Below, piece after piece: positions 1 to 43,400 of a DNA stretch of 44,963 bases. A program made the translations under genes and the position numbers. Where the stretch lies: the sequence record NC_073083.1; one strand, given 5' to 3'. The first letter of the stretch is position 1; the number at the start of each line of letters is the position of its first letter. The stretch is from Escherichia phage BF9. The notes under the pieces are model-generated. The model did not search any database and was not told where the DNA came from. It saw only the letters and a program-made list of their open reading frames with translations.

Positions 1-1610
1 CCTTCCAGCTTCTCCACTTTCCGCAACAGGTGAACGAAGGCGGCGCACAGATCCATCAACAGCACGTTACTATCGAGAGTCAGCACATCGTCTGTGTACC
101 CGATTTCCTTTCGGTCGATTACAACTTCGTTCCCTTCCTCGTCCACCCCCTTGATATCCTCATAAATGGCATAACCCGGCAGCAAGTGTACGTATTCTGG
201 GTCAATCCTTGCCAGATCCTGTGCGATAAGGCCGTATCGCTGTACGTCCGACTCCTTATACTTGAACATTGCCGGAAGCCATTGACGAACGCGGTTGTAG
301 CTTTCCTCGCCGTCAGTGTATTGGATTTCTTTTTTAAGGTCGCGGTCTGATAGCGGCGCTTTCTGGAACTCGTTAACCGAAGGGTTGCCGCTGGTACCAC
401 TAATCAGCCTTTGGTCTGGCATAAAGCGGAATAAAGCCTCACTGACACCACTTTTCCACACGTGGACGCGGTAGTCTGACAAGTGGGTGTCGCCCGCACG
501 CACAAGTCCTGCGCGTGCCCAGTCTATATACCACCGATGCATTGTATGCCCCACCCAGTTATCTACCCCATACAGCGCGTTTGACAGACTGGTAGAGTTA
601 GCCTCTAATGCCTTTAACACTACTGACTCGCCGCCATTCAGGTGCAGCGCACCCAACTTAACCAAACTATCATCACCAACCCCAAGATTAGTGCGCGCCT
701 CCGCTGCCGTTGTTGCTGCCGTGCCGCCTTTTTCGATGGGTACGGTGTTCTCCGTAGCTACAGACCCCAAACCAAGATTAGCGCGTGCTGCAGATTTATC
801 TGCGACGTCTGCCAGGTTCTGCGACTTCTTCATGAATTGCGTAGGGTCGATCGCGTTTTTGAAGTCTTCGGCTTCATCCCGATACCCCTGCGCGGCATCG
901 CGGGCGGCTTGCGCGTCCGTCTTCGCTGTATTGGCCTGATCTCGAATAACGCCAGTATCAGTCTTAATCTGGTTCGTCTGGTCCTTGATGGTCTGCGTAT
1001 CAGTCTTGATCTGGTCCGTCTGCGTCTTGATGGTATTAGTGGCGTCGTGGATCGCCTGCGTATCCGCCTTAATCTGATTGGTGGCGTCGCGAATACCCGC
1101 CGTCTCGGTCTTGAAGCCTTCGGCCTCATTGCGAAATCCTTGCGCGGCGGCTTCCGATGCGGCTGCTTGTTGTTGCAGGTTGCGCATCTCAACTGGGTCG
1201 ATCTGTTTCATCAACTGCGACAGATAGCCCCATGACATGCCCTGCATAACCTGCCCGTTAGGTAACGTCACTGTGATTTCTTCAGCGTCGCCGAAGATTG
1301 CACGCCAGTTGTTTTCATCTGCAATCATCAAGCGCAATGCTTTTTGGGCCTGTACGGTAACGCCCATCGTTGCCAGTGACATGGTATCGCGCTTAACGCC
1401 ATCCCACGCAAGACCGGTTGCCGTTGGGCCGTCGAACGGTAACACTAGCGTAAGCGCGGTCTCGCTTTCAATGGACGCGATCGCAACCGTGTAAGGCACT
1501 TGCCCCACCACCAGAGTTAAGAAGTCGCCAGCGTTAAACGAGGTAAACGTTGTGCCGACCCCTACAACCGCCTTGCTGTTATTCGTTACGGATAGAGTTC
1601 CCGCTGCCAT
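1..1610 (-). CDS. Tail fiber protein with C-terminal intramolecular-chaperone-like domain; 3' end runs off the window start and is represented again at 44688..44963
   Basis: ATG at 1610..1608 preceded by GAGGA. Hand translation begins MAAGTLSVTNNSKAVVGVGTTFTSF, has a central run of degenerate repeats (IKADTQAIHDATNTIKTQTDQIKTDTQTIKDQTNQIKTD), and ends with SDVQRYGLIAQDLARIDPEYV, which resembles the auto-cleaving chaperone domain of endosialidase-type fibers. Not in the ORF track because the frame has no stop before position 1. Confidence 0.6.
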   Translation of the reverse strand, partial: MAAGTLSVTNNSKAVVGVGTTFTSFNAGDFLTLVVGQVPYTVAIASIESETALTLVLPFDGPTATGLAWDGVKRDTMSLATMGVTVQAQKALRLMIADENNWRAIFGDAEEITVTLPNGQVMQGMSWGYLSQLMKQIDPVEMRNLQQQAAASEAAAQGFRNEAEGFKTETAGIRDATNQIKADTQAIHDATNTIKTQTDQIKTDTQTIKDQTNQIKTDTGVIRDQANTAKTDAQAARDAAQGYRDEAEDFKNAIDPTQFMKKSQNLADVADKSAARANLGLGSVATENTVPIEKGGTAATTAAEARTNLGVGDDSLVKLGALHLNGGESVVLKALEANSTSLSNALYGVDNWVGHTMHRWYIDWARAGLVRAGDTHLSDYRVHVWKSGVSEALFRFMPDQRLISGTSGNPSVNEFQKAPLSDRDLKKEIQYTDGEESYNRVRQWLPAMFKYKESDVQRYGLIAQDLARIDPEYVHLLPGYAIYEDIKGVDEEGNEVVIDRKEIGYTDDVLTLDSNVLLMDLCAAFVHLLRKVEKLE

Positions 1611-1690
1611 AGCTAAATCCTCATAAATTGGTTGCATTCTCGATTGAGCGGTGCAATACTAAAACTCGACCAAATATGGGAGATGATAAC
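1611..1690 (+). promoter_or_regulatory. Candidate promoter for the rightward lipoprotein cassette, containing one TTGGTTGCA motif
   Basis: aaATTGGTTGCATtctcgattgagcggtgcAATACT gives TTGCAT-N17-AATACT, a sigma70-like spacing, immediately upstream of the lipoprotein gene. Confidence 0.35.
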
Positions 1691-1912
1691 ATGAAAACAT
1701 TAATTGTGATTTGTTCGGTTCTTCTGTCCGGCTGTGCGGTAGAACGTAACAACGGCGATTGCATTACGGTAGCTTACGGTAGCTGCATGTTGCGCTACGT
1801 CGATGGGCAAAAAGTGCCTGCCGGAGATGTGGATATGCGCTTCACTGGCCTGTCTTCGGATGCCGACGGCAATTTCTCAGGCACTGTATCAGTTAAATCA
1901 CGGGAGTGGTAA
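1691..1912 (+). CDS. Small secreted lipoprotein (73 aa); possible Cor/Llp-type superinfection-exclusion protein
   Basis: MKTLIVICSVLLSGC has a signal peptide and lipobox (LSGC). Sits next to the tail fiber/J genes on the opposite strand, as cor and llp do in T1- and T5-like phages. Start is the internal ATG of track ORF 1628..1912. Confidence 0.5.
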   Translation: MKTLIVICSVLLSGCAVERNNGDCITVAYGSCMLRYVDGQKVPAGDVDMRFTGLSSDADGNFSGTVSVKSREW

Positions 1913-1914
1913 TT

Positions 1915-2880
1915 ATGGGCGCTGGAATACTTATCGACTACAACGACGGGCGGCCTGTTATGGCGATAACTGCCGGTCTACGCGCTCCGTCATACTGCAC
2001 TACGTTTGATCAACGCTGCCAGTCAGACAAGACGCTGACCATTAACACCCCGCTAACCCCTGGGTCGGATCTTGTCGTTGCGCTCACGCGCCCGGTCGAA
2101 GTGATTGAGGTATTCGACCAAACGCTGGTTCTTCCAGATCCGTTCTACGTGACGTCGGTACAACGCAACGGGGATAGCGGCATTATTCTACGAGGCGCGG
2201 ACGCGTATAACGCATATAGTGGTCTCCCGCAATGGGCGGGGATAATTATGGAAGTGCTGCCGGTTGGGTCGCGCAATGCGGGCTTACTGGTGGCGAACTC
2301 GACTGACTTCACCGCGATATCGAACGTATCCCGGCTTATGACCTGCCGATATGCGCAGCGCGTGCATGTGAACGACAGTATGCCTTTACCGGTGGGTGGC
2401 ATCCCGTTCGCGCGCTGGGATAACGGCAACGTGTCGGTAGGATTTGATGGCAGTAATATCATCGTCCGCAATTCGTCTTATGGCGGGATCGACGACGTAG
2501 GGGCCGAAGTGGACCTGGATTTGGTTATCTTCAATAACACGCCACCATCTCCGGGGACCGGTATAACCATGACGAACAACCAGGGGCAGGTCACGTTCTC
2601 CACCGTGAATAAGCCGTTTGTTCTCAATTCCGTTATTAATATCGGCACTGGTGGTCAGAATATCGGTAACAGCCTCGTACAGCTTTCATATACCGGCGCG
2701 CTCATTGAGAACAACAGCGGATACAACCACGTGAGAATGAACGGAATACGCATGGCAGGCAACGTGGTTAGCGCGGCACGAAATCGCGTGATTGGTAACT
2801 ACTCACGACAGCAATTCCAGATGCCTAACCGCAACATAACCGCACCCACCCCGTTACTCGTCATCCCTAACATGTATTAA
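1915..2880 (+). CDS. Hypothetical protein (321 aa), Gly/Asn/Thr-rich, probably beta-rich; function unknown
   Basis: Track ORF 1906..2880; ATG at 1915 is preceded by GGGAGTGG. Co-oriented with the lipoprotein gene and followed by a hairpin terminator. Confidence 0.5.
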   Translation: MGAGILIDYNDGRPVMAITAGLRAPSYCTTFDQRCQSDKTLTINTPLTPGSDLVVALTRPVEVIEVFDQTLVLPDPFYVTSVQRNGDSGIILRGADAYNAYSGLPQWAGIIMEVLPVGSRNAGLLVANSTDFTAISNVSRLMTCRYAQRVHVNDSMPLPVGGIPFARWDNGNVSVGFDGSNIIVRNSSYGGIDDVGAEVDLDLVIFNNTPPSPGTGITMTNNQGQVTFSTVNKPFVLNSVINIGTGGQNIGNSLVQLSYTGALIENNSGYNHVRMNGIRMAGNVVSAARNRVIGNYSRQQFQMPNRNITAPTPLLVIPNMY

Positions 2881-2906
2881 AAAAGGGGCCGGATGGCCCC
2901 TTCGCA
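2881..2906. terminator. Bidirectional intrinsic terminator between convergent genes
   Basis: aaaaaGGGGCCggatGGCCCCttcg: GC stem flanked by an A-run on one side and T-rich sequence on the other. Confidence 0.6.
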
Positions 2907-2907
2907 T

Positions 2908-5900
2908 TTACCACGTCCCAACTTTCACCCTACCTCCTCCAGGTAATGGCACGTTAATGCCGGTTGCGTCGATCTGTACCGACCCGCCGGAGAAACCGAA
3001 GTTACCAGTGGTCGCGAACAAGTTGCCGCGTACCGTTACGTTGTTGAACTCCGCCCAGCCATCCTTCGCGATACGCCAGCCGCTGCTACCTGGATTCCAG
3101 TTATTCGATTGCAGCGTGTCCGTGATCTGTGCGAAGTTGATGGACGCGTTCTTGATGCGCGCCGTGTCGATGTACACCTGACCGCCGTCAACGATAAACG
3201 CAGACGAAAGTGACCCATTCGACGGGTGCATGATGTAGAACTGGTCCGCCTTGAACGCGATGCTGGATTTAACCGCACCGCCTTCCACCACAACTGAAAG
3301 CTGCATACCGGCATCATAGTAAGTCCCGTTATACGTCACGCCAGCATTAAGGCTGTATGTGGCACTACCGCCAGCATGGTTAAACGAAGACGTCATCTTC
3401 TGCTCGATAGCTGCGGACTGCTGACCGAACTGCGCCGCTACCTGGGTCTTGTACTCCGCCAGCGCTCCCGCTACGTCTGCCGTTGCCGTTTGTACCTGCT
3501 GGATGGCAGCTTCCTGTTCCCCGAACTTAGCGGCAACAGTTTGTTGGTACTGGGCGAACGCTTGTTCGTGCGTGCTTTGCGCGGTCTGCAACGTGTGGAT
3601 CGCCGCTTCCGCATCGTCAAGGCGAGTACCGATCAACGTCTCAAGTTGCGCGACCGCCTTGTGGGCATCCGCCGCCACGTTATACGCTACCTTGATTTCT
3701 GCGTAGATCCCCTGGTACTCGGCGCGGGCGTTAAACAATTGCTGTGCGTCCGTGAGCATGGCTTCATAAATGCCTTGCGGCATGGTGTCGATCGCTTCCT
3801 GGAAGCGTTTACCATCCTCTGAAGTCAAGAACTCGTCGTCCAACCCCTTCATATACTCGTCAACTTTGTCACTCACCTGGCCTTCAAACGGGGCTGACCA
3901 GTCCGACAGGTTGCCGATTTTATCCGCTACGCGGGCGCGCAACTGCTGGTAGATCCCGAACTCCAGCGACGTTTGCGCATAGTCCGATCCCGGATATGGG
4001 ACGTTGGTCAAGAACTTCCATTCCGTTTCGCCCCGCTTGCGCACTTCAAGCTCGGTGTAAGAGATATCCGTCGCGGCGTTGTTGTGGTTCCACTTCCACA
4101 AAATTTGGTGAAGGCCCGAAATCGCGTTGGTGATGATAGGCGCGTTAAGCCCGCCGAGACGACCTTCGATCGGCGTGATGGCAGACGACACCCACGGGGA
4201 TGAAATCTCACCCATACCGATTGCGCGGACGCGTGCCTGGTAGTTACCGGAGAACACGTTAGGGATGTGAGCGCCGTTCGATGCCGTGCGAGGGATGTTC
4301 ACCCAGTCGTTACCCCACTGGATTTCCATATTCTGCAAGCTGGTACGTCGCCACTGGATTTCATATACAACGGCATCCTTCACCGGCGGGAAAACAATAT
4401 CCACGTTGGTGATTAGCTGGCCTTGCGATGAAATCTGCGACGGGGTGATGGTCACGGACTCCGGCCCCTTCATTACGCCGTCAGGTACTTGCGTAAAGAT
4501 GCCTGGGTCAAGGCGAGCGCCATTATCAACGGCATCATATTTGCTATCGTTGTACTCGATCCCGCGCACTGAAAAAGTGCTGGTAGAGTCGTCATATTCC
4601 AGGTCGGTGATGCGGAACTTCTGCAACTGGATATCATCGCCATCAACGCAAAACGGCTGGTCTGGAATCGGGTCGGCGTCCAGTGCGGTTTTTAGCGTAA
4701 CCTTGTTGCCGTTGACGCTGGCGATCTCGCGAGTCTCCACATTACCGCTATCGGTGCGTACCAGGAATTTATCGCCAGGGCGGAACGTGATTTCGCTGTC
4801 TGTGTTCAGCACCGTCCGCGTGCCCGGATCTGACAACAGGCGACCGCCGCGTGTCTCGAAGCCGCCAGAAATGTTTGTATCGGCGATCGCTACTACGCTA
4901 CCCGGAATAAAGAATAGTCCTTCCATGCCAACCTTAAAGCTAACTTGCTGGTCAAGCTGGTTGGAGATTAGCGCCCAGTGCCCCCGGCGTTGCGCTTCTG
5001 ATTCACGCGTACAGCCGATCGCCGTTATATCGAGACGGTTAATCTTATGGCGGCGTACCAGTTCGACACGTTGCCCCGTTGCGATGGCATCCTCATAGTG
5101 GTTCTTCGGGTTGCCGTATGCTACCGCGAACGTGGAATAGCGAGTTTTCTGGCTCCCTGACGCGTAGTCGAATCTGCCATCAATAACAGAGGCGTTGGTG
5201 ATAGTGTGCGATACCGCTGCGACCGGCTGGTCACTTACGATATTCAACATCTGGTTGCCCCACCAGGTCATACCGGCAAAGATGGCGGCTAAATCCTTAA
5301 GCACGGTCCAGGCGTCGGTCTGCGACTGGATGTACATATCATTCTTAAATCGGATTTCCTGCCCGCCGTTGCCGTCGCTGACAAGCTGGTCACAGCGCTG
5401 CGCAATCTGGTAGAGCGCGTACCGGTTCAGCATTTGCGGCTTGATCCTACGACCGAGGCCGAAGCGCTCAGTAATACAAATATCGTACCAGTGCCACGCA
5501 GGGTTGTCCGTCCAGGCGCGTTTAAACGTGCCATCCCAGTCGCCCGAATATGTATGATTAATCGGGTCGTAGTTGTTCGGAACCAGCACTTTGCGGCCTT
5601 TGCACTTGATGGACACCCGAGGGATGTTCTGAAACGCTTTAGCGTCGAACTCCACGAACAACAGCGCGGTTAGCGGGTAGCGCAGGCGGGCGTCGATAAT
5701 CTCAGTGATTGATTGCACCTGAATATCGTTCACCACTTTTGCCGATGTGGAATCAGCCGTTGTGCGGTGCACTTCCACGCGCCAGCCAGTGTTAACGTTC
5801 GGCGGTAACTCGATGCGGTGGTCTCGCTCGTACAGCGACATTGTTTTACCAACGGCAGCAAATGTAAACTCGCGCGGATCTGCGTTATCCGTATACACAA

Positions 5901-6354
5901 CGATTTTATAGTCGATGCGCCCGCCTACCAGGTCGCCATTATCTTCGTTGGTGTACAAAGCCGGAATGCCGATTCGAATGCGCACGGCGTCAAGACTTGT
6001 GTCATTAATCTGGCGCACCCACGGCGTGCCGTTTTCCAGTTTTACGCCTACTGTTTGCTCACTTTCCACCGCGGAAAATCCGTGGATTACATCCTGGTGC
6101 TGTGTGCCTGGGCGGAACTCCACGCGCGCGCCGGGGAAGTTTTCCGACAGGTCGGCGTTCTGGATCGGTGTGCCGTCCAGGTATACGCGCTGCCGTAATT
6201 CGTTAGGGTCGGGAATACCTTCGAATTCCCCTTCACCCAGCGCAAGCAAGATGCGGATTTTAGCCAGGGAATGCAGGCTGTCCGGCGTTTCCTGCGGGGT
6301 GTGCTGTTTGCCTCCGCCGCCTTTATGGCCTGTAACGTCGTAGATAATCGTCAT
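2908..6354 (-). CDS. Central tail fiber / host specificity protein (lambda gpJ-like), 1148 aa
   Basis: Size, position after the K and I homologs, and conserved gpJ-type N-terminus MTIIYDVTGHKGGGGK...LLALGEGEFEG. Confidence 0.85.
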   Translation of the reverse strand: MTIIYDVTGHKGGGGKQHTPQETPDSLHSLAKIRILLALGEGEFEGIPDPNELRQRVYLDGTPIQNADLSENFPGARVEFRPGTQHQDVIHGFSAVESEQTVGVKLENGTPWVRQINDTSLDAVRIRIGIPALYTNEDNGDLVGGRIDYKIVVYTDNADPREFTFAAVGKTMSLYERDHRIELPPNVNTGWRVEVHRTTADSTSAKVVNDIQVQSITEIIDARLRYPLTALLFVEFDAKAFQNIPRVSIKCKGRKVLVPNNYDPINHTYSGDWDGTFKRAWTDNPAWHWYDICITERFGLGRRIKPQMLNRYALYQIAQRCDQLVSDGNGGQEIRFKNDMYIQSQTDAWTVLKDLAAIFAGMTWWGNQMLNIVSDQPVAAVSHTITNASVIDGRFDYASGSQKTRYSTFAVAYGNPKNHYEDAIATGQRVELVRRHKINRLDITAIGCTRESEAQRRGHWALISNQLDQQVSFKVGMEGLFFIPGSVVAIADTNISGGFETRGGRLLSDPGTRTVLNTDSEITFRPGDKFLVRTDSGNVETREIASVNGNKVTLKTALDADPIPDQPFCVDGDDIQLQKFRITDLEYDDSTSTFSVRGIEYNDSKYDAVDNGARLDPGIFTQVPDGVMKGPESVTITPSQISSQGQLITNVDIVFPPVKDAVVYEIQWRRTSLQNMEIQWGNDWVNIPRTASNGAHIPNVFSGNYQARVRAIGMGEISSPWVSSAITPIEGRLGGLNAPIITNAISGLHQILWKWNHNNAATDISYTELEVRKRGETEWKFLTNVPYPGSDYAQTSLEFGIYQQLRARVADKIGNLSDWSAPFEGQVSDKVDEYMKGLDDEFLTSEDGKRFQEAIDTMPQGIYEAMLTDAQQLFNARAEYQGIYAEIKVAYNVAADAHKAVAQLETLIGTRLDDAEAAIHTLQTAQSTHEQAFAQYQQTVAAKFGEQEAAIQQVQTATADVAGALAEYKTQVAAQFGQQSAAIEQKMTSSFNHAGGSATYSLNAGVTYNGTYYDAGMQLSVVVEGGAVKSSIAFKADQFYIMHPSNGSLSSAFIVDGGQVYIDTARIKNASINFAQITDTLQSNNWNPGSSGWRIAKDGWAEFNNVTVRGNLFATTGNFGFSGGSVQIDATGINVPLPGGGRVKVGTW

Positions 6355-17699: not shown

Positions 17700-17750
17700 C
17701 GCTTGCAATCCGCGTATTGGTTGCACTATATTGGTTGCACACCAACCACG
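17700..17750 (+). promoter_or_regulatory. Promoter with tandem TTGGTTGCA motifs driving the rightward gene inside the head module
   Basis: TTGCAAtccgcgtaTTGGTTGCACTATATTGGTTGCACaccaacc gives TTGCAA-N17-CTATAT. The same 21 bp core (CTATATTGGTTGCACACCAAC) recurs in reverse orientation near 28085. Confidence 0.5.
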
Positions 17751-17761
17751 AGGACACACAA

Positions 17762-18526
17762 ATGAGACTGACTAAAGACATTAAAAACCAGATCCTGGCT
17801 AACATCCTGCGCGACCACGAAATAGCTACCGAAGCCAAATCAATCATGATGGACTCACGCGACCTGGCGTACGCCATTACGCTGGACTGTATGCCGGAAG
17901 GCATTCGCACATTCGCCGAGCTACTCGCGCGCATTGAAGCAATCGGCGATGATCCGTCGCAGATGTACGGCGTCTGTGTATACACCAATAAGGCGACGTA
18001 TAGACATGACGCCGACAACCCATATGGTATAGGCTGCGTTTACGACGCCACTTTCGAAATCAACGCAGGCGGAAACGTCCGTACCGTGTCATTGAGCGGA
18101 GACGGACACCGATTCCGAGTACATCGCGGATACTGGGAGTATAAATACATGAATAAACTGTCTCCCGATCTCGGCGATATTGTGCCAGGGTATGAGGAAA
18201 TTTTGTTAGCGTCAGTGTGCGAAGTCGACGACGACGGGAAAGCGCTGCCGATATATCTTCCGCGCGGTCGAGTAGACTACCCTGCGGACCATGATTTCTG
18301 TAAGCGCCTGGACCGTAACGACAAGGCCCGCCGCGAGTTGCGAGCTAAGTATGACGCGTTCAAACTAACCGTTACCGGCGTGCTGGATATGCACAATACC
18401 GATAAGAAGCTGATCAAGGCGTGGCCTGAAGTGGAACAGTTCATTCCGCACCCTGACAAGCCGAAGTCCACGGCGGTGGCGCTGGACGTGAAGACGCTAA
18501 ACGAGATTTGCGGTATTCCGCGCTAA
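17762..18526 (+). CDS. Hypothetical protein (254 aa) on the opposite strand within the head gene block; accessory (moron-like) gene
   Basis: Internal ATG (MRLTKDIKNQ) of track ORF 17717..18526 with RBS GAGGA; own promoter upstream and terminator downstream; no motif recognised. Confidence 0.6.
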   Translation: MRLTKDIKNQILANILRDHEIATEAKSIMMDSRDLAYAITLDCMPEGIRTFAELLARIEAIGDDPSQMYGVCVYTNKATYRHDADNPYGIGCVYDATFEINAGGNVRTVSLSGDGHRFRVHRGYWEYKYMNKLSPDLGDIVPGYEEILLASVCEVDDDGKALPIYLPRGRVDYPADHDFCKRLDRNDKARRELRAKYDAFKLTVTGVLDMHNTDKKLIKAWPEVEQFIPHPDKPKSTAVALDVKTLNEICGIPR

Positions 18527-28067: not shown

Positions 28068-28279
28068 CGTTCAGTCCTCATGTTGGTGTGCAACCAATAT
28101 AGCAGGGTGCCAGGGCGAGCGCAACCAAGATTAATCACGCGCATGAAAAAGTTGATCGCTATCTGCTGTAACTGCAAACCGCATTTTTCACTCAACATAA
28201 TACAACCCGCATTGGTTGCCTAGTTCATCGACGACCGCACTTCGCGTCATGCTGCCGTGTATTTTGCAATCCCCGGATT
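28068..28279 (-). promoter_or_regulatory. Leftward promoter/operator region with several TGCAACCAA motifs
   Basis: Minus strand reads CTATATTGGTTGCACACCAAC (28085..28105), identical to the core at 17727..17747; further copies near 28123 and 28211. Confidence 0.45.
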
Positions 28280-42920: not shown

Positions 42921-43387
42921 AACTACTGATTTGTGATCTGGATGGCGTTATTAACGGTTCAAGTGATGCGCGCGCCGACCTGGTGCCGGGGATAAAAACG
43001 AAATCAACATTTTGGGCGAAGTGGCACAAAGCGCACGTACGCGAAGACCTGAACATGGATATGCTGCCGCTGTTGCGCATGTACAAAGAGCAAGGCTTCG
43101 AGATCGCGTATCTGACGAACCGGCAGCGCGAATGTTGGGACACCACCGCCGAGCAATTGGAGGTCTTCCCCGTAGGTCGATTGTTCATGCGCCACATGCT
43201 GGACGACACCCCGCCGCCAGAGTTTAAGGCGTGCGCCGTTTTCAAAATGGTCTGCTATGCGGACGTGTCGGAACTGGTCATCATTGAAGACTGTCCGAAG
43301 AACATCGCGGCAATTCGTCGGGCGTGTGGTGATTTGGTCCCGAAAATTTACGCAATAAACGTTGCAAAATTCACTTGCAACCAATAG
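42917..43387 (+). CDS. HAD-superfamily hydrolase-like protein (possible nucleotidase/phosphatase)
   Basis: N-terminal LLICDLDGVI matches HAD motif I (DxDG). Confidence 0.45.
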   Translation: MKLLICDLDGVINGSSDARADLVPGIKTKSTFWAKWHKAHVREDLNMDMLPLLRMYKEQGFEIAYLTNRQRECWDTTAEQLEVFPVGRLFMRHMLDDTPPPEFKACAVFKMVCYADVSELVIIEDCPKNIAAIRRACGDLVPKIYAINVAKFTCNQ

Positions 43388-43400
43388 GTTGGTTGCACTA
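43370..43400 (+). promoter_or_regulatory. Promoter/operator with inverted TGCAACCAA / TTGGTTGCA pair
   Basis: cacTTGCAACCAAtaggTTGGTTGCACTATAGtt: an inverted repeat that also gives TTGCAA-N17-CTATAG. Confidence 0.45.

Follow-up and report, generated by a model that had tools for sequence, protein, structure and literature searches.

A predicted LptD-specific host-recognition module in the tail gene block of Escherichia phage BF9

A two-gene cassette on the plus strand of Escherichia phage BF9 is very probably an LptD-specific host-recognition module of a Dhillonvirus-type siphophage, in which a 321-aa protein would serve as the terminal receptor-binding protein (RBP) and a 73-aa lipoprotein would act as a receptor blocker. 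Our analysis of the cassette established its gene structure, the family membership of its products, their near-identity to characterised proteins, an identical locus architecture, and purifying selection. The preliminary description of this region had as its central idea that the lipoprotein blocks the phage's own receptor beside a receptor-binding gene. Homology to the structurally characterised proteins of phages Oekolampad and Rtp now backs that idea.

The stretch that we analysed, called the window throughout, comprises 44,963 nucleotides (NC_073083.1) and represents a Dhillonvirus-type coliphage with approximately 90–92% DNA identity to deposited phages. Its region 1–3200, which contains the cassette, shares ~90% DNA identity with Escherichia phages bov22_1, bov11C2 and Pandora71 and is matched by 161 phage records. 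The other half of the window shares ~92% DNA identity with phages mckay, SO-1 and the bov series.

Gene layout

Two co-oriented plus-strand genes sit inside a minus-strand tail block, as had been described from the sequence, and both open reading frames were confirmed together with both flanking genes. The lipoprotein gene (1691–1912, plus strand; ATG at 1691, stop at 1910–1912) lies immediately upstream of the gene for the 321-aa protein (1915–2880, plus strand; ATG at 1915, stop at 2878–2880). The two open reading frames are real genes, with Pfam scores far above the cut-offs and low dN/dS. A gap of 2 nt separates the lipoprotein stop from the start of the second gene, and a GGGAG Shine-Dalgarno sequence is found 8 nt upstream of each start, at 1678–1682 for the lipoprotein and at 1902–1906 for the 321-aa protein. 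The pair is probably one small plus-strand operon with the lipoprotein gene first, placed for co-transcription and co-translation.

On either side of the cassette are minus-strand genes that we describe for context. The lateral tail fibre gene (3–1610, minus strand) lies outside the module and starts at 1610, not 1611; 536 aa are visible, and the window edge cuts it 7 nt short, with the last two codons and the stop beyond the edge. Its product shares 90% identity with the tail fibre of Pandora71 and carries a Peptidase_S74 intramolecular chaperone domain at aa 421–474. On the other side, a GpJ-like tail tip gene (2908–6354, minus strand) encodes 1148 aa with the Pfam domains FNIII-A_GpJ, Phage-tail_3 and Phage_Tail_Tip, and the product shares 89% identity with J of Oekolampad over its last 200 residues. 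This gene and the gene for the 321-aa protein converge, such that the stop of the 321-aa gene (2880) faces the stop of the GpJ-like gene (2908).

The 321-aa protein

The 321-aa protein had been described as lacking any recognisable motif. Profile searches of both proteins, proposed at the time as a check, instead revealed a full-length DUF6453 protein here (PF20051; 393 bits against a cut-off of 25, profile positions 1–290 of 291) and a PF24052 member in the lipoprotein. A PHROG scan assigned the 321-aa protein to phrog_1265. Among all PDB chain sequences its sole match was 9RPT chain C, with residues 1–321 aligned to residues 1–321 at E=1.5e-180. This entry, along with 9RPW and 9RQI, shows by cryo-EM how the RBP of Oekolampad (Bas18, Dhillonvirus) sits on the LptDE translocon in its open state, with an interface of about 1,700 square angstroms and 20 hydrogen bonds (Dunbar et al., PNAS 2025, PMC12685063).

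In a study based on genome-wide screens, a single RBP family, defined by >30% identity and >99% coverage, was specific to LptD (bioRxiv 10.64898/2026.04.02.716166). We assigned LptD-type membership by a Pfam score above the gathering cut-off together with the same identity and coverage to a verified member. By BLASTP, the 321-aa protein is identical to the Oekolampad RBP (RBPOeko, bas18_0025) at 271 of 321 residues (84%), in a gapless alignment that spans 321/321 residues, and the 50 substitutions are spread evenly along the whole length. Gln299 is kept; in RBPOeko this residue forms a hydrogen bond to LptD Ser350 and is the contact residue that the paper names in its text (PMC12685063). Receptor binding had been one of several roles offered for this protein, and it is the one that full-length homology to an RBP solved on LptDE supports. 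We predict that BF9 depends on LptD.

Comparison with Oekolampad shows strong purifying selection on the gene (dN/dS 0.08), and the high synonymous divergence (dS 1.38) points to an old divergence or to a different allele lineage. Relatives of the RBP are encoded in 344 records of the phage collection, the closest being the Pandora71 DUF6453 protein at 98.8% identity. The protein had also been called Gly/Asn-rich, and this enrichment is real but mild: glycine makes up 10.0% and asparagine 9.7% of residues, with valine equally at 10.0%.

The lipoprotein

The first gene encodes a 73-aa Rtp45-type lipoprotein, a proposed superinfection-exclusion factor acting on LptDE. Its N-terminus, MKTLIVICSVLLSGC, comprises a signal peptide (aa 1–14) and a lipobox LSG/C (MKTLIVICSVLLSG/C), with the lipid-anchor cysteine at Cys15 and Ala16 at position +2. 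Thus the size and the LSGC lipobox given earlier were correct, and the anchor residue is confirmed. By the sorting rule of the Lol pathway, the lack of Asp at +2 directs a lipoprotein to the outer membrane. The BF9 protein combines a signal peptide, a lipobox and an anchor cysteine with the absence of Asp at +2, as expected for outer-membrane sorting.

The lipoprotein matched families strongly in two profile collections, with 74.9 bits against a cut-off of 27 for the Pfam 'Phage lipoprotein family' (PF24052) and E=1.5e-32 for phrog_4281. Rtp45 itself scores 128 bits on the PF24052 model, and a PDB sequence search aligned the BF9 lipoprotein to Rtp45 (9RPS chain D) at E=6.9e-8. Cys24 and Cys32 align to the Cys30–Cys38 disulfide of Rtp45 and form a putative disulfide pair; the alignment of the Oekolampad lipoprotein SEOeko in Dunbar et al. 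marks the same pair (PMC12685063). The closest characterised counterpart by identity is bas18_0026 of Oekolampad, with 70 of 73 residues identical (96%). Purifying selection between these two genes is strong (dN/dS 0.05, dS 0.5). Lipoprotein relatives are encoded in 318 records of the phage collection, of which bov22_1 is closest (97.3% identity).

Alternative readings

Three other accounts of the cassette were weighed against the module reading. The label attached to phrog_1265, 'membrane protein; moron, auxiliary metabolic gene and host takeover', and the naming of relatives as membrane protein in several GenBank records would make the 321-aa protein a membrane protein or moron instead of a virion receptor-binding protein. 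We give this account almost no credence and rejected the label, as the protein has no transmembrane-compatible hydrophobic stretch (maximum Kyte-Doolittle 19-residue mean 1.23), carries no signal peptide (the N-terminus MGAGILIDYNDGRP is not signal-like), and has an 84%-identical homologue that is soluble and, in cryo-EM structures, sits on LptDE from the extracellular side. The second account concerns the lipoprotein, which had been likened to Cor and Llp. The functional half of that comparison, receptor blocking beside an RBP gene, stands on the 96% identity to SEOeko and the homology to Rtp45, but the family is PF24052. A member of the Cor family (T1/phi80/N15) or of the Llp family (T5), excluding other phages by blocking FhuA in a phage that itself uses FhuA, would have the same build, a small lipoprotein beside host-specificity genes, and some Dhillonviruses do use FhuA (PMC8594841). 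The lone Cor PHROG match, to phrog_1119, is weak (E=0.0043) and confined to residues 1–30, the signal peptide; no Cor-type Pfam match appeared at E<=1, no Llp family in Pfam or PHROG scans at E<=1, and no Llp-containing entry in the PDB sequence search at E<=10. The strong matches are instead to PF24052, phrog_4281 and Rtp45 on LptDE, and the adjoining RBP is of the LptD-type DUF6453 family, not the FhuA type. With nothing matching beyond the signal peptide, we rejected membership in either family and regard FhuA blocking as barely credible.

The third account keeps the family assignment and changes the function: the lipoprotein would help the 321-aa protein to assemble or fold, as a partner or chaperone, or would act on LptDE in some other way, for example by altering LPS export. 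Tight gene linkage, with the 2-nt gap and probable co-translation, is what such a partnership would produce; in vivo exclusion by a Dhillonvirus lipoprotein is itself extrapolated from Rtp45; and Kuravirus podophages encode PF24052 members with no DUF6453 gene next to them, which suggests that the role of PF24052 may be broader. A chaperone role conflicts with the predicted location of the two proteins. The lipoprotein is headed for the periplasm and outer membrane by its Sec signal and lipobox, whereas the RBP, having no signal peptide, would stay cytoplasmic until lysis, which makes a folding partnership implausible. A function other than exclusion also sits poorly with Rtp45, which binds LptDE and displaces the EL4 loop that the RBP requires. 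We therefore consider this account very improbable, and favour receptor blocking as the function of the BF9 lipoprotein, which may have a further role at LptDE.

Regulatory sequences around the cassette

The cassette had been credited with a promoter-like sequence of its own. We place a putative sigma-70 promoter at 1632–1660 on the plus strand, consisting of TTGCAT at 1632–1637, a 17-nt spacer, TG at 1652–1653, and AATACT at 1655–1660; transcription from it is predicted to start near 1667. Its −10 region is kept in Oekolampad and Pandora71, but it is weak, with 7 of 12 consensus positions, and a consensus scan of 1400–3100 did not call it. The only call of that scan, a minus-strand promoter-like match at 1710–1683 (ATCACA-16-TATCAT), was discarded, as shuffled sequence gives as much.

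Upstream of the cassette, and partly within this candidate promoter, lies the 9-mer TTGGTTGCA (1628–1636, plus strand), whose last five bases together with the next T make up the putative −35. The 9-mer is invariant at this place in three phages, the window, Oekolampad and Pandora71, and the bases between it and the −10 region vary.

Exact copies of TTGGTTGCA occur 11 times in the window, against about 0.5 expected, and at up to one mismatch there are 29 copies, against 11.4 +/- 3.4 in shuffles. Oekolampad likewise holds 11 exact copies against 0.48 expected; 10 of the 11 lie between annotated genes, one of them upstream of the lipoprotein gene. Copies often occur two together, in direct or inverted orientation. 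The TTGCAx portion precedes a TATAxT box by 17 nt in several instances, among them 41462 and 38520 (plus strand) and 28128 (minus strand). Other copies overlap a −10 box or a start region, as at 17717/17731 and 28097.

The element looks like a promoter or operator class that would serve much of the genome. A sigma-54 or NtrC-type reading was dropped by eye, as the spacing is wrong. A full-text literature search for TTGGTTGCA returned unrelated primer sequences only, and by that search the element is the only feature of the region for which no description was found. Whether the cassette belongs to a phage-wide regulon defined by TTGGTTGCA is a more tentative matter, and we think it unlikely. 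If it does, the element would be the operator or promoter of a phage-encoded or hijacked host transcription factor, and the RBP and lipoprotein would be switched on with the replication, early and lysis-side units, not with the surrounding tail genes. Such a regulon would explain the opposite-strand placement of the module and would amount to an undescribed regulatory circuit in Dhillonviruses.

At the other end of the cassette, a GC-rich hairpin with an 8-bp stem (2883–2902) lies between the convergent RBP and J genes. Folding gave −16.3 kcal/mol on the plus strand and −18.5 kcal/mol on the minus strand (z about −3). A U-run, UUUUUU, follows on the minus strand only, after J, and the plus-strand tail reads UUCGCAUUU. 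The clean U6 on the minus strand suggests that the hairpin is first of all the terminator of J and a weaker terminator for the cassette. Of the bidirectional terminator described earlier, the hairpin is thus real on both strands, but a proper U-run is found on the minus strand alone. A consensus terminator scan of 1400–3100 did not call the hairpin. The corresponding place in phage Rtp also holds a hairpin, quite unlike this one in sequence, and this combination of same position and different sequence argues for function.

Proposed mechanism

In the mechanism that we propose, the RBP would be synthesised in the cytoplasm and then attach by non-covalent contacts to the distal end of GpJ, at its C-terminus. 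This attachment to J is inferred; in the Oekolampad cryo-EM maps, the tail-proximal end of the RBP is disordered (PMC12685063). On a new host, the RBP would plug into the extracellular mouth of open LptDE.

The lipoprotein, meanwhile, would be exported, receive its lipid anchor and be sorted to the outer membrane. Homology to Rtp45 predicts that it binds LptD at the periplasmic rim, close to strands 5–8 and between LptE and LptM, and sends a hairpin up the LptD lumen that displaces loop EL4 outward by up to 20 angstroms. With EL4 displaced, the RBP would be unable to dock. Such a block would protect infected cells from superinfection and spare progeny virions from being wasted on debris, and a shared operon would guarantee that the receptor is blocked as RBP is produced. 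In vivo superinfection exclusion by the BF9 lipoprotein is likely on the same homology. In Oekolampad, bas18_0026 is the proposed exclusion lipoprotein SEOeko; its expression failed, and the mechanism rests on the structure of the 35%-identical Rtp45, solved on the periplasmic side of LptDE with LptM (PDB 9RPS; PMC12685063).

The module itself is already known: its genetics were described in 2021 and its structure in 2025 in a congeneric phage, and near-identical genes are in GenBank. Conceptually, the assignment adds nothing new. Its use is that it predicts the terminal receptor of BF9 from sequence as LptD, the essential and conserved outer-membrane LPS exporter, a prediction that could serve host-range prediction, phage-cocktail design and receptor engineering.

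Comparison with known systems

The 'bona fide RBP locus' is common to Drexlerviridae, Dhillonvirus, Nonagvirus and Seuratvirus; its allelic types matched the receptor without exception, and it bears the marks of frequent horizontal transfer (Maffei et al., PLoS Biol 2021, PMC8594841). Spontaneous lptD mutants were resistant, in the same study, to Oekolampad and six further small siphoviruses that carry the module. GpJ C-termini are receptor-type-specific, and some carriers of the module require a second receptor, as does Bas01, which requires NupG via its J protein (bioRxiv 10.64898/2026.04.02.716166). In Kuravirus podophages, for example phiEco32, a strong PF24052 lipoprotein (124 bits) is encoded among small genes away from any DUF6453 gene; a literature search found no link between these podophages and LptD.

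The closest known system is Oekolampad, a phage of the same genus with the same layout: J (bas18_0024), opposite-strand RBP (bas18_0025) and lipoprotein (bas18_0026), and lateral fibre (bas18_0027). RBP and lipoprotein have equal lengths in the two phages, 321 and 73 aa, and the TTGGTTGCA element and the terminator hairpin are at the same places. The lateral tail fibre next door, in contrast, differs. Rtp, of the Drexlerviridae, is more distant. Rtp44 and Rtp45 belong to the same two Pfam families, DUF6453 and PF24052, and the order is likewise lipoprotein (rtp45) then RBP (rtp44), facing J (rtp43), with a hairpin between the convergent genes. The lipid-anchor cysteine and the disulfide cysteine pair of Rtp45 are kept in the BF9 lipoprotein. 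However, Rtp belongs to a different phage family, protein identity is only about 33–35%, and its upstream neighbours are recombination genes, not a lateral tail fibre. The opposite-strand layout shared with Oekolampad and Rtp marks the cassette as conserved and portable, a unit linked to the gpJ 3' end.

The wider parallel is with T5 pb5/Llp and T1/phi80 Cor, where a tail-tip RBP is likewise paired with an adjacent outer-membrane lipoprotein that inactivates the receptor from the periplasmic side. The protein families are unrelated, and the receptor of Llp and Cor is FhuA. The mode of inactivation also differs: according to Dunbar et al., Llp works by long-range allostery, whereas Rtp45 works by physical loop displacement through the barrel lumen (PMC12685063).

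A repeated 9-mer across the genome

The 9-mer TTGGTTGCA, one copy of which lies upstream of the lipoprotein and receptor-binding protein (RBP) genes, is strongly over-represented in the window, with 11 exact copies against ~0.5 expected. Eight copies, at 1628, 17717, 17731, 25160, 27572, 41462, 41479 and 43389, carry no strand sign, and three, at 28089, 31396 and 43376, are on the minus strand. Examples with one mismatch include 25183 and 38520 (no strand sign) and, on the minus strand, 28120, 28492/28527/28581 and 34291/34307. The relative Oekolampad (Bas18) likewise holds 11 exact copies where ~0.5 are expected, and 10 of the 11 are intergenic relative to its annotated genes. Copies are frequently paired or inverted, as in GCAACCAAtaggTTGGTTGCA at 43376–43397, and they overlap −35 or −10 positions. 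TTGGTTGCA probably serves as a promoter or operator element throughout the genome; searching the literature in full text for this 9-mer turned up no account of it.

Two copies sit immediately upstream of a second opposite-strand gene in the structural module, the later one ending 22 nt before the ATG. This gene (17762–18526, plus strand), within the minus-strand head/tail block, encodes a 254-aa protein that matches Pfam Nmad5 (186 bits), nucleotide modification associated domain 5, and phrog_1965, which is annotated as unknown function. Its Oekolampad counterpart is bas18_0007.

Relatives of the LptD module in other phages

The lipoprotein family PF24052, typified by Rtp45 of phage Rtp, extends to Kuravirus-type podophages. 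In phiEco32, phi32_106 (L004 3468–3749) matches it strongly, at 124 bits, and comparable matches occur in Bas87 AnnaHegner, SGF2 and other Gordonclarkvirinae. There the gene lies among small genes with a tRNA adjoining, and no DUF6453 RBP was seen near it. Kuravirus-type podophages are described as O-antigen/LPS-core dependent, and a literature search found no link between them and LptD. Their lipoprotein could serve to exclude competing LptD-dependent siphophages; alternatively, it could hint at a role for LptD in the podophages' own entry.

Genes with 60–89% identity to the window's RBP gene, or with up to 94.5% identity to its lipoprotein gene, also appear in records named for non-Escherichia hosts: Acinetobacter phage NJ01 (OQ221563), Campylobacter phage A121 (MG065670), Aeromonas phage SD04 (MH230177) and Sodalis phage SO-1 (GQ502199). 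SO-1 also shares ~93% DNA identity with the window across much of the genome. Either the host labels of these records are doubtful, or the host range of the LptD module is wider than E. coli.

The lateral tail fibre gene

The lateral tail fibre gene (3–1610, minus strand), whose last 7 nt lie beyond the window edge, may require a promoter of its own at 1710..1683, since a good terminator closes J. This minus-strand match (ATCACA-16-TATCAT, with TG), lying within the 5′ end of the lipoprotein gene and directed toward the fibre gene start at 1610, is the sole hit of a consensus scan in the region, a number not above the mean of 1.7 from shuffled sequence.

The fibre carries a Peptidase_S74 intramolecular-chaperone domain at aa 421–474. 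DNA encoding its C-terminal part (window 1 to ~800) is common to only 9 of 161 matching records; window ~800–3200, by contrast, is widely shared among them. Such uneven sharing fits the known mosaic lateral-fibre locus.
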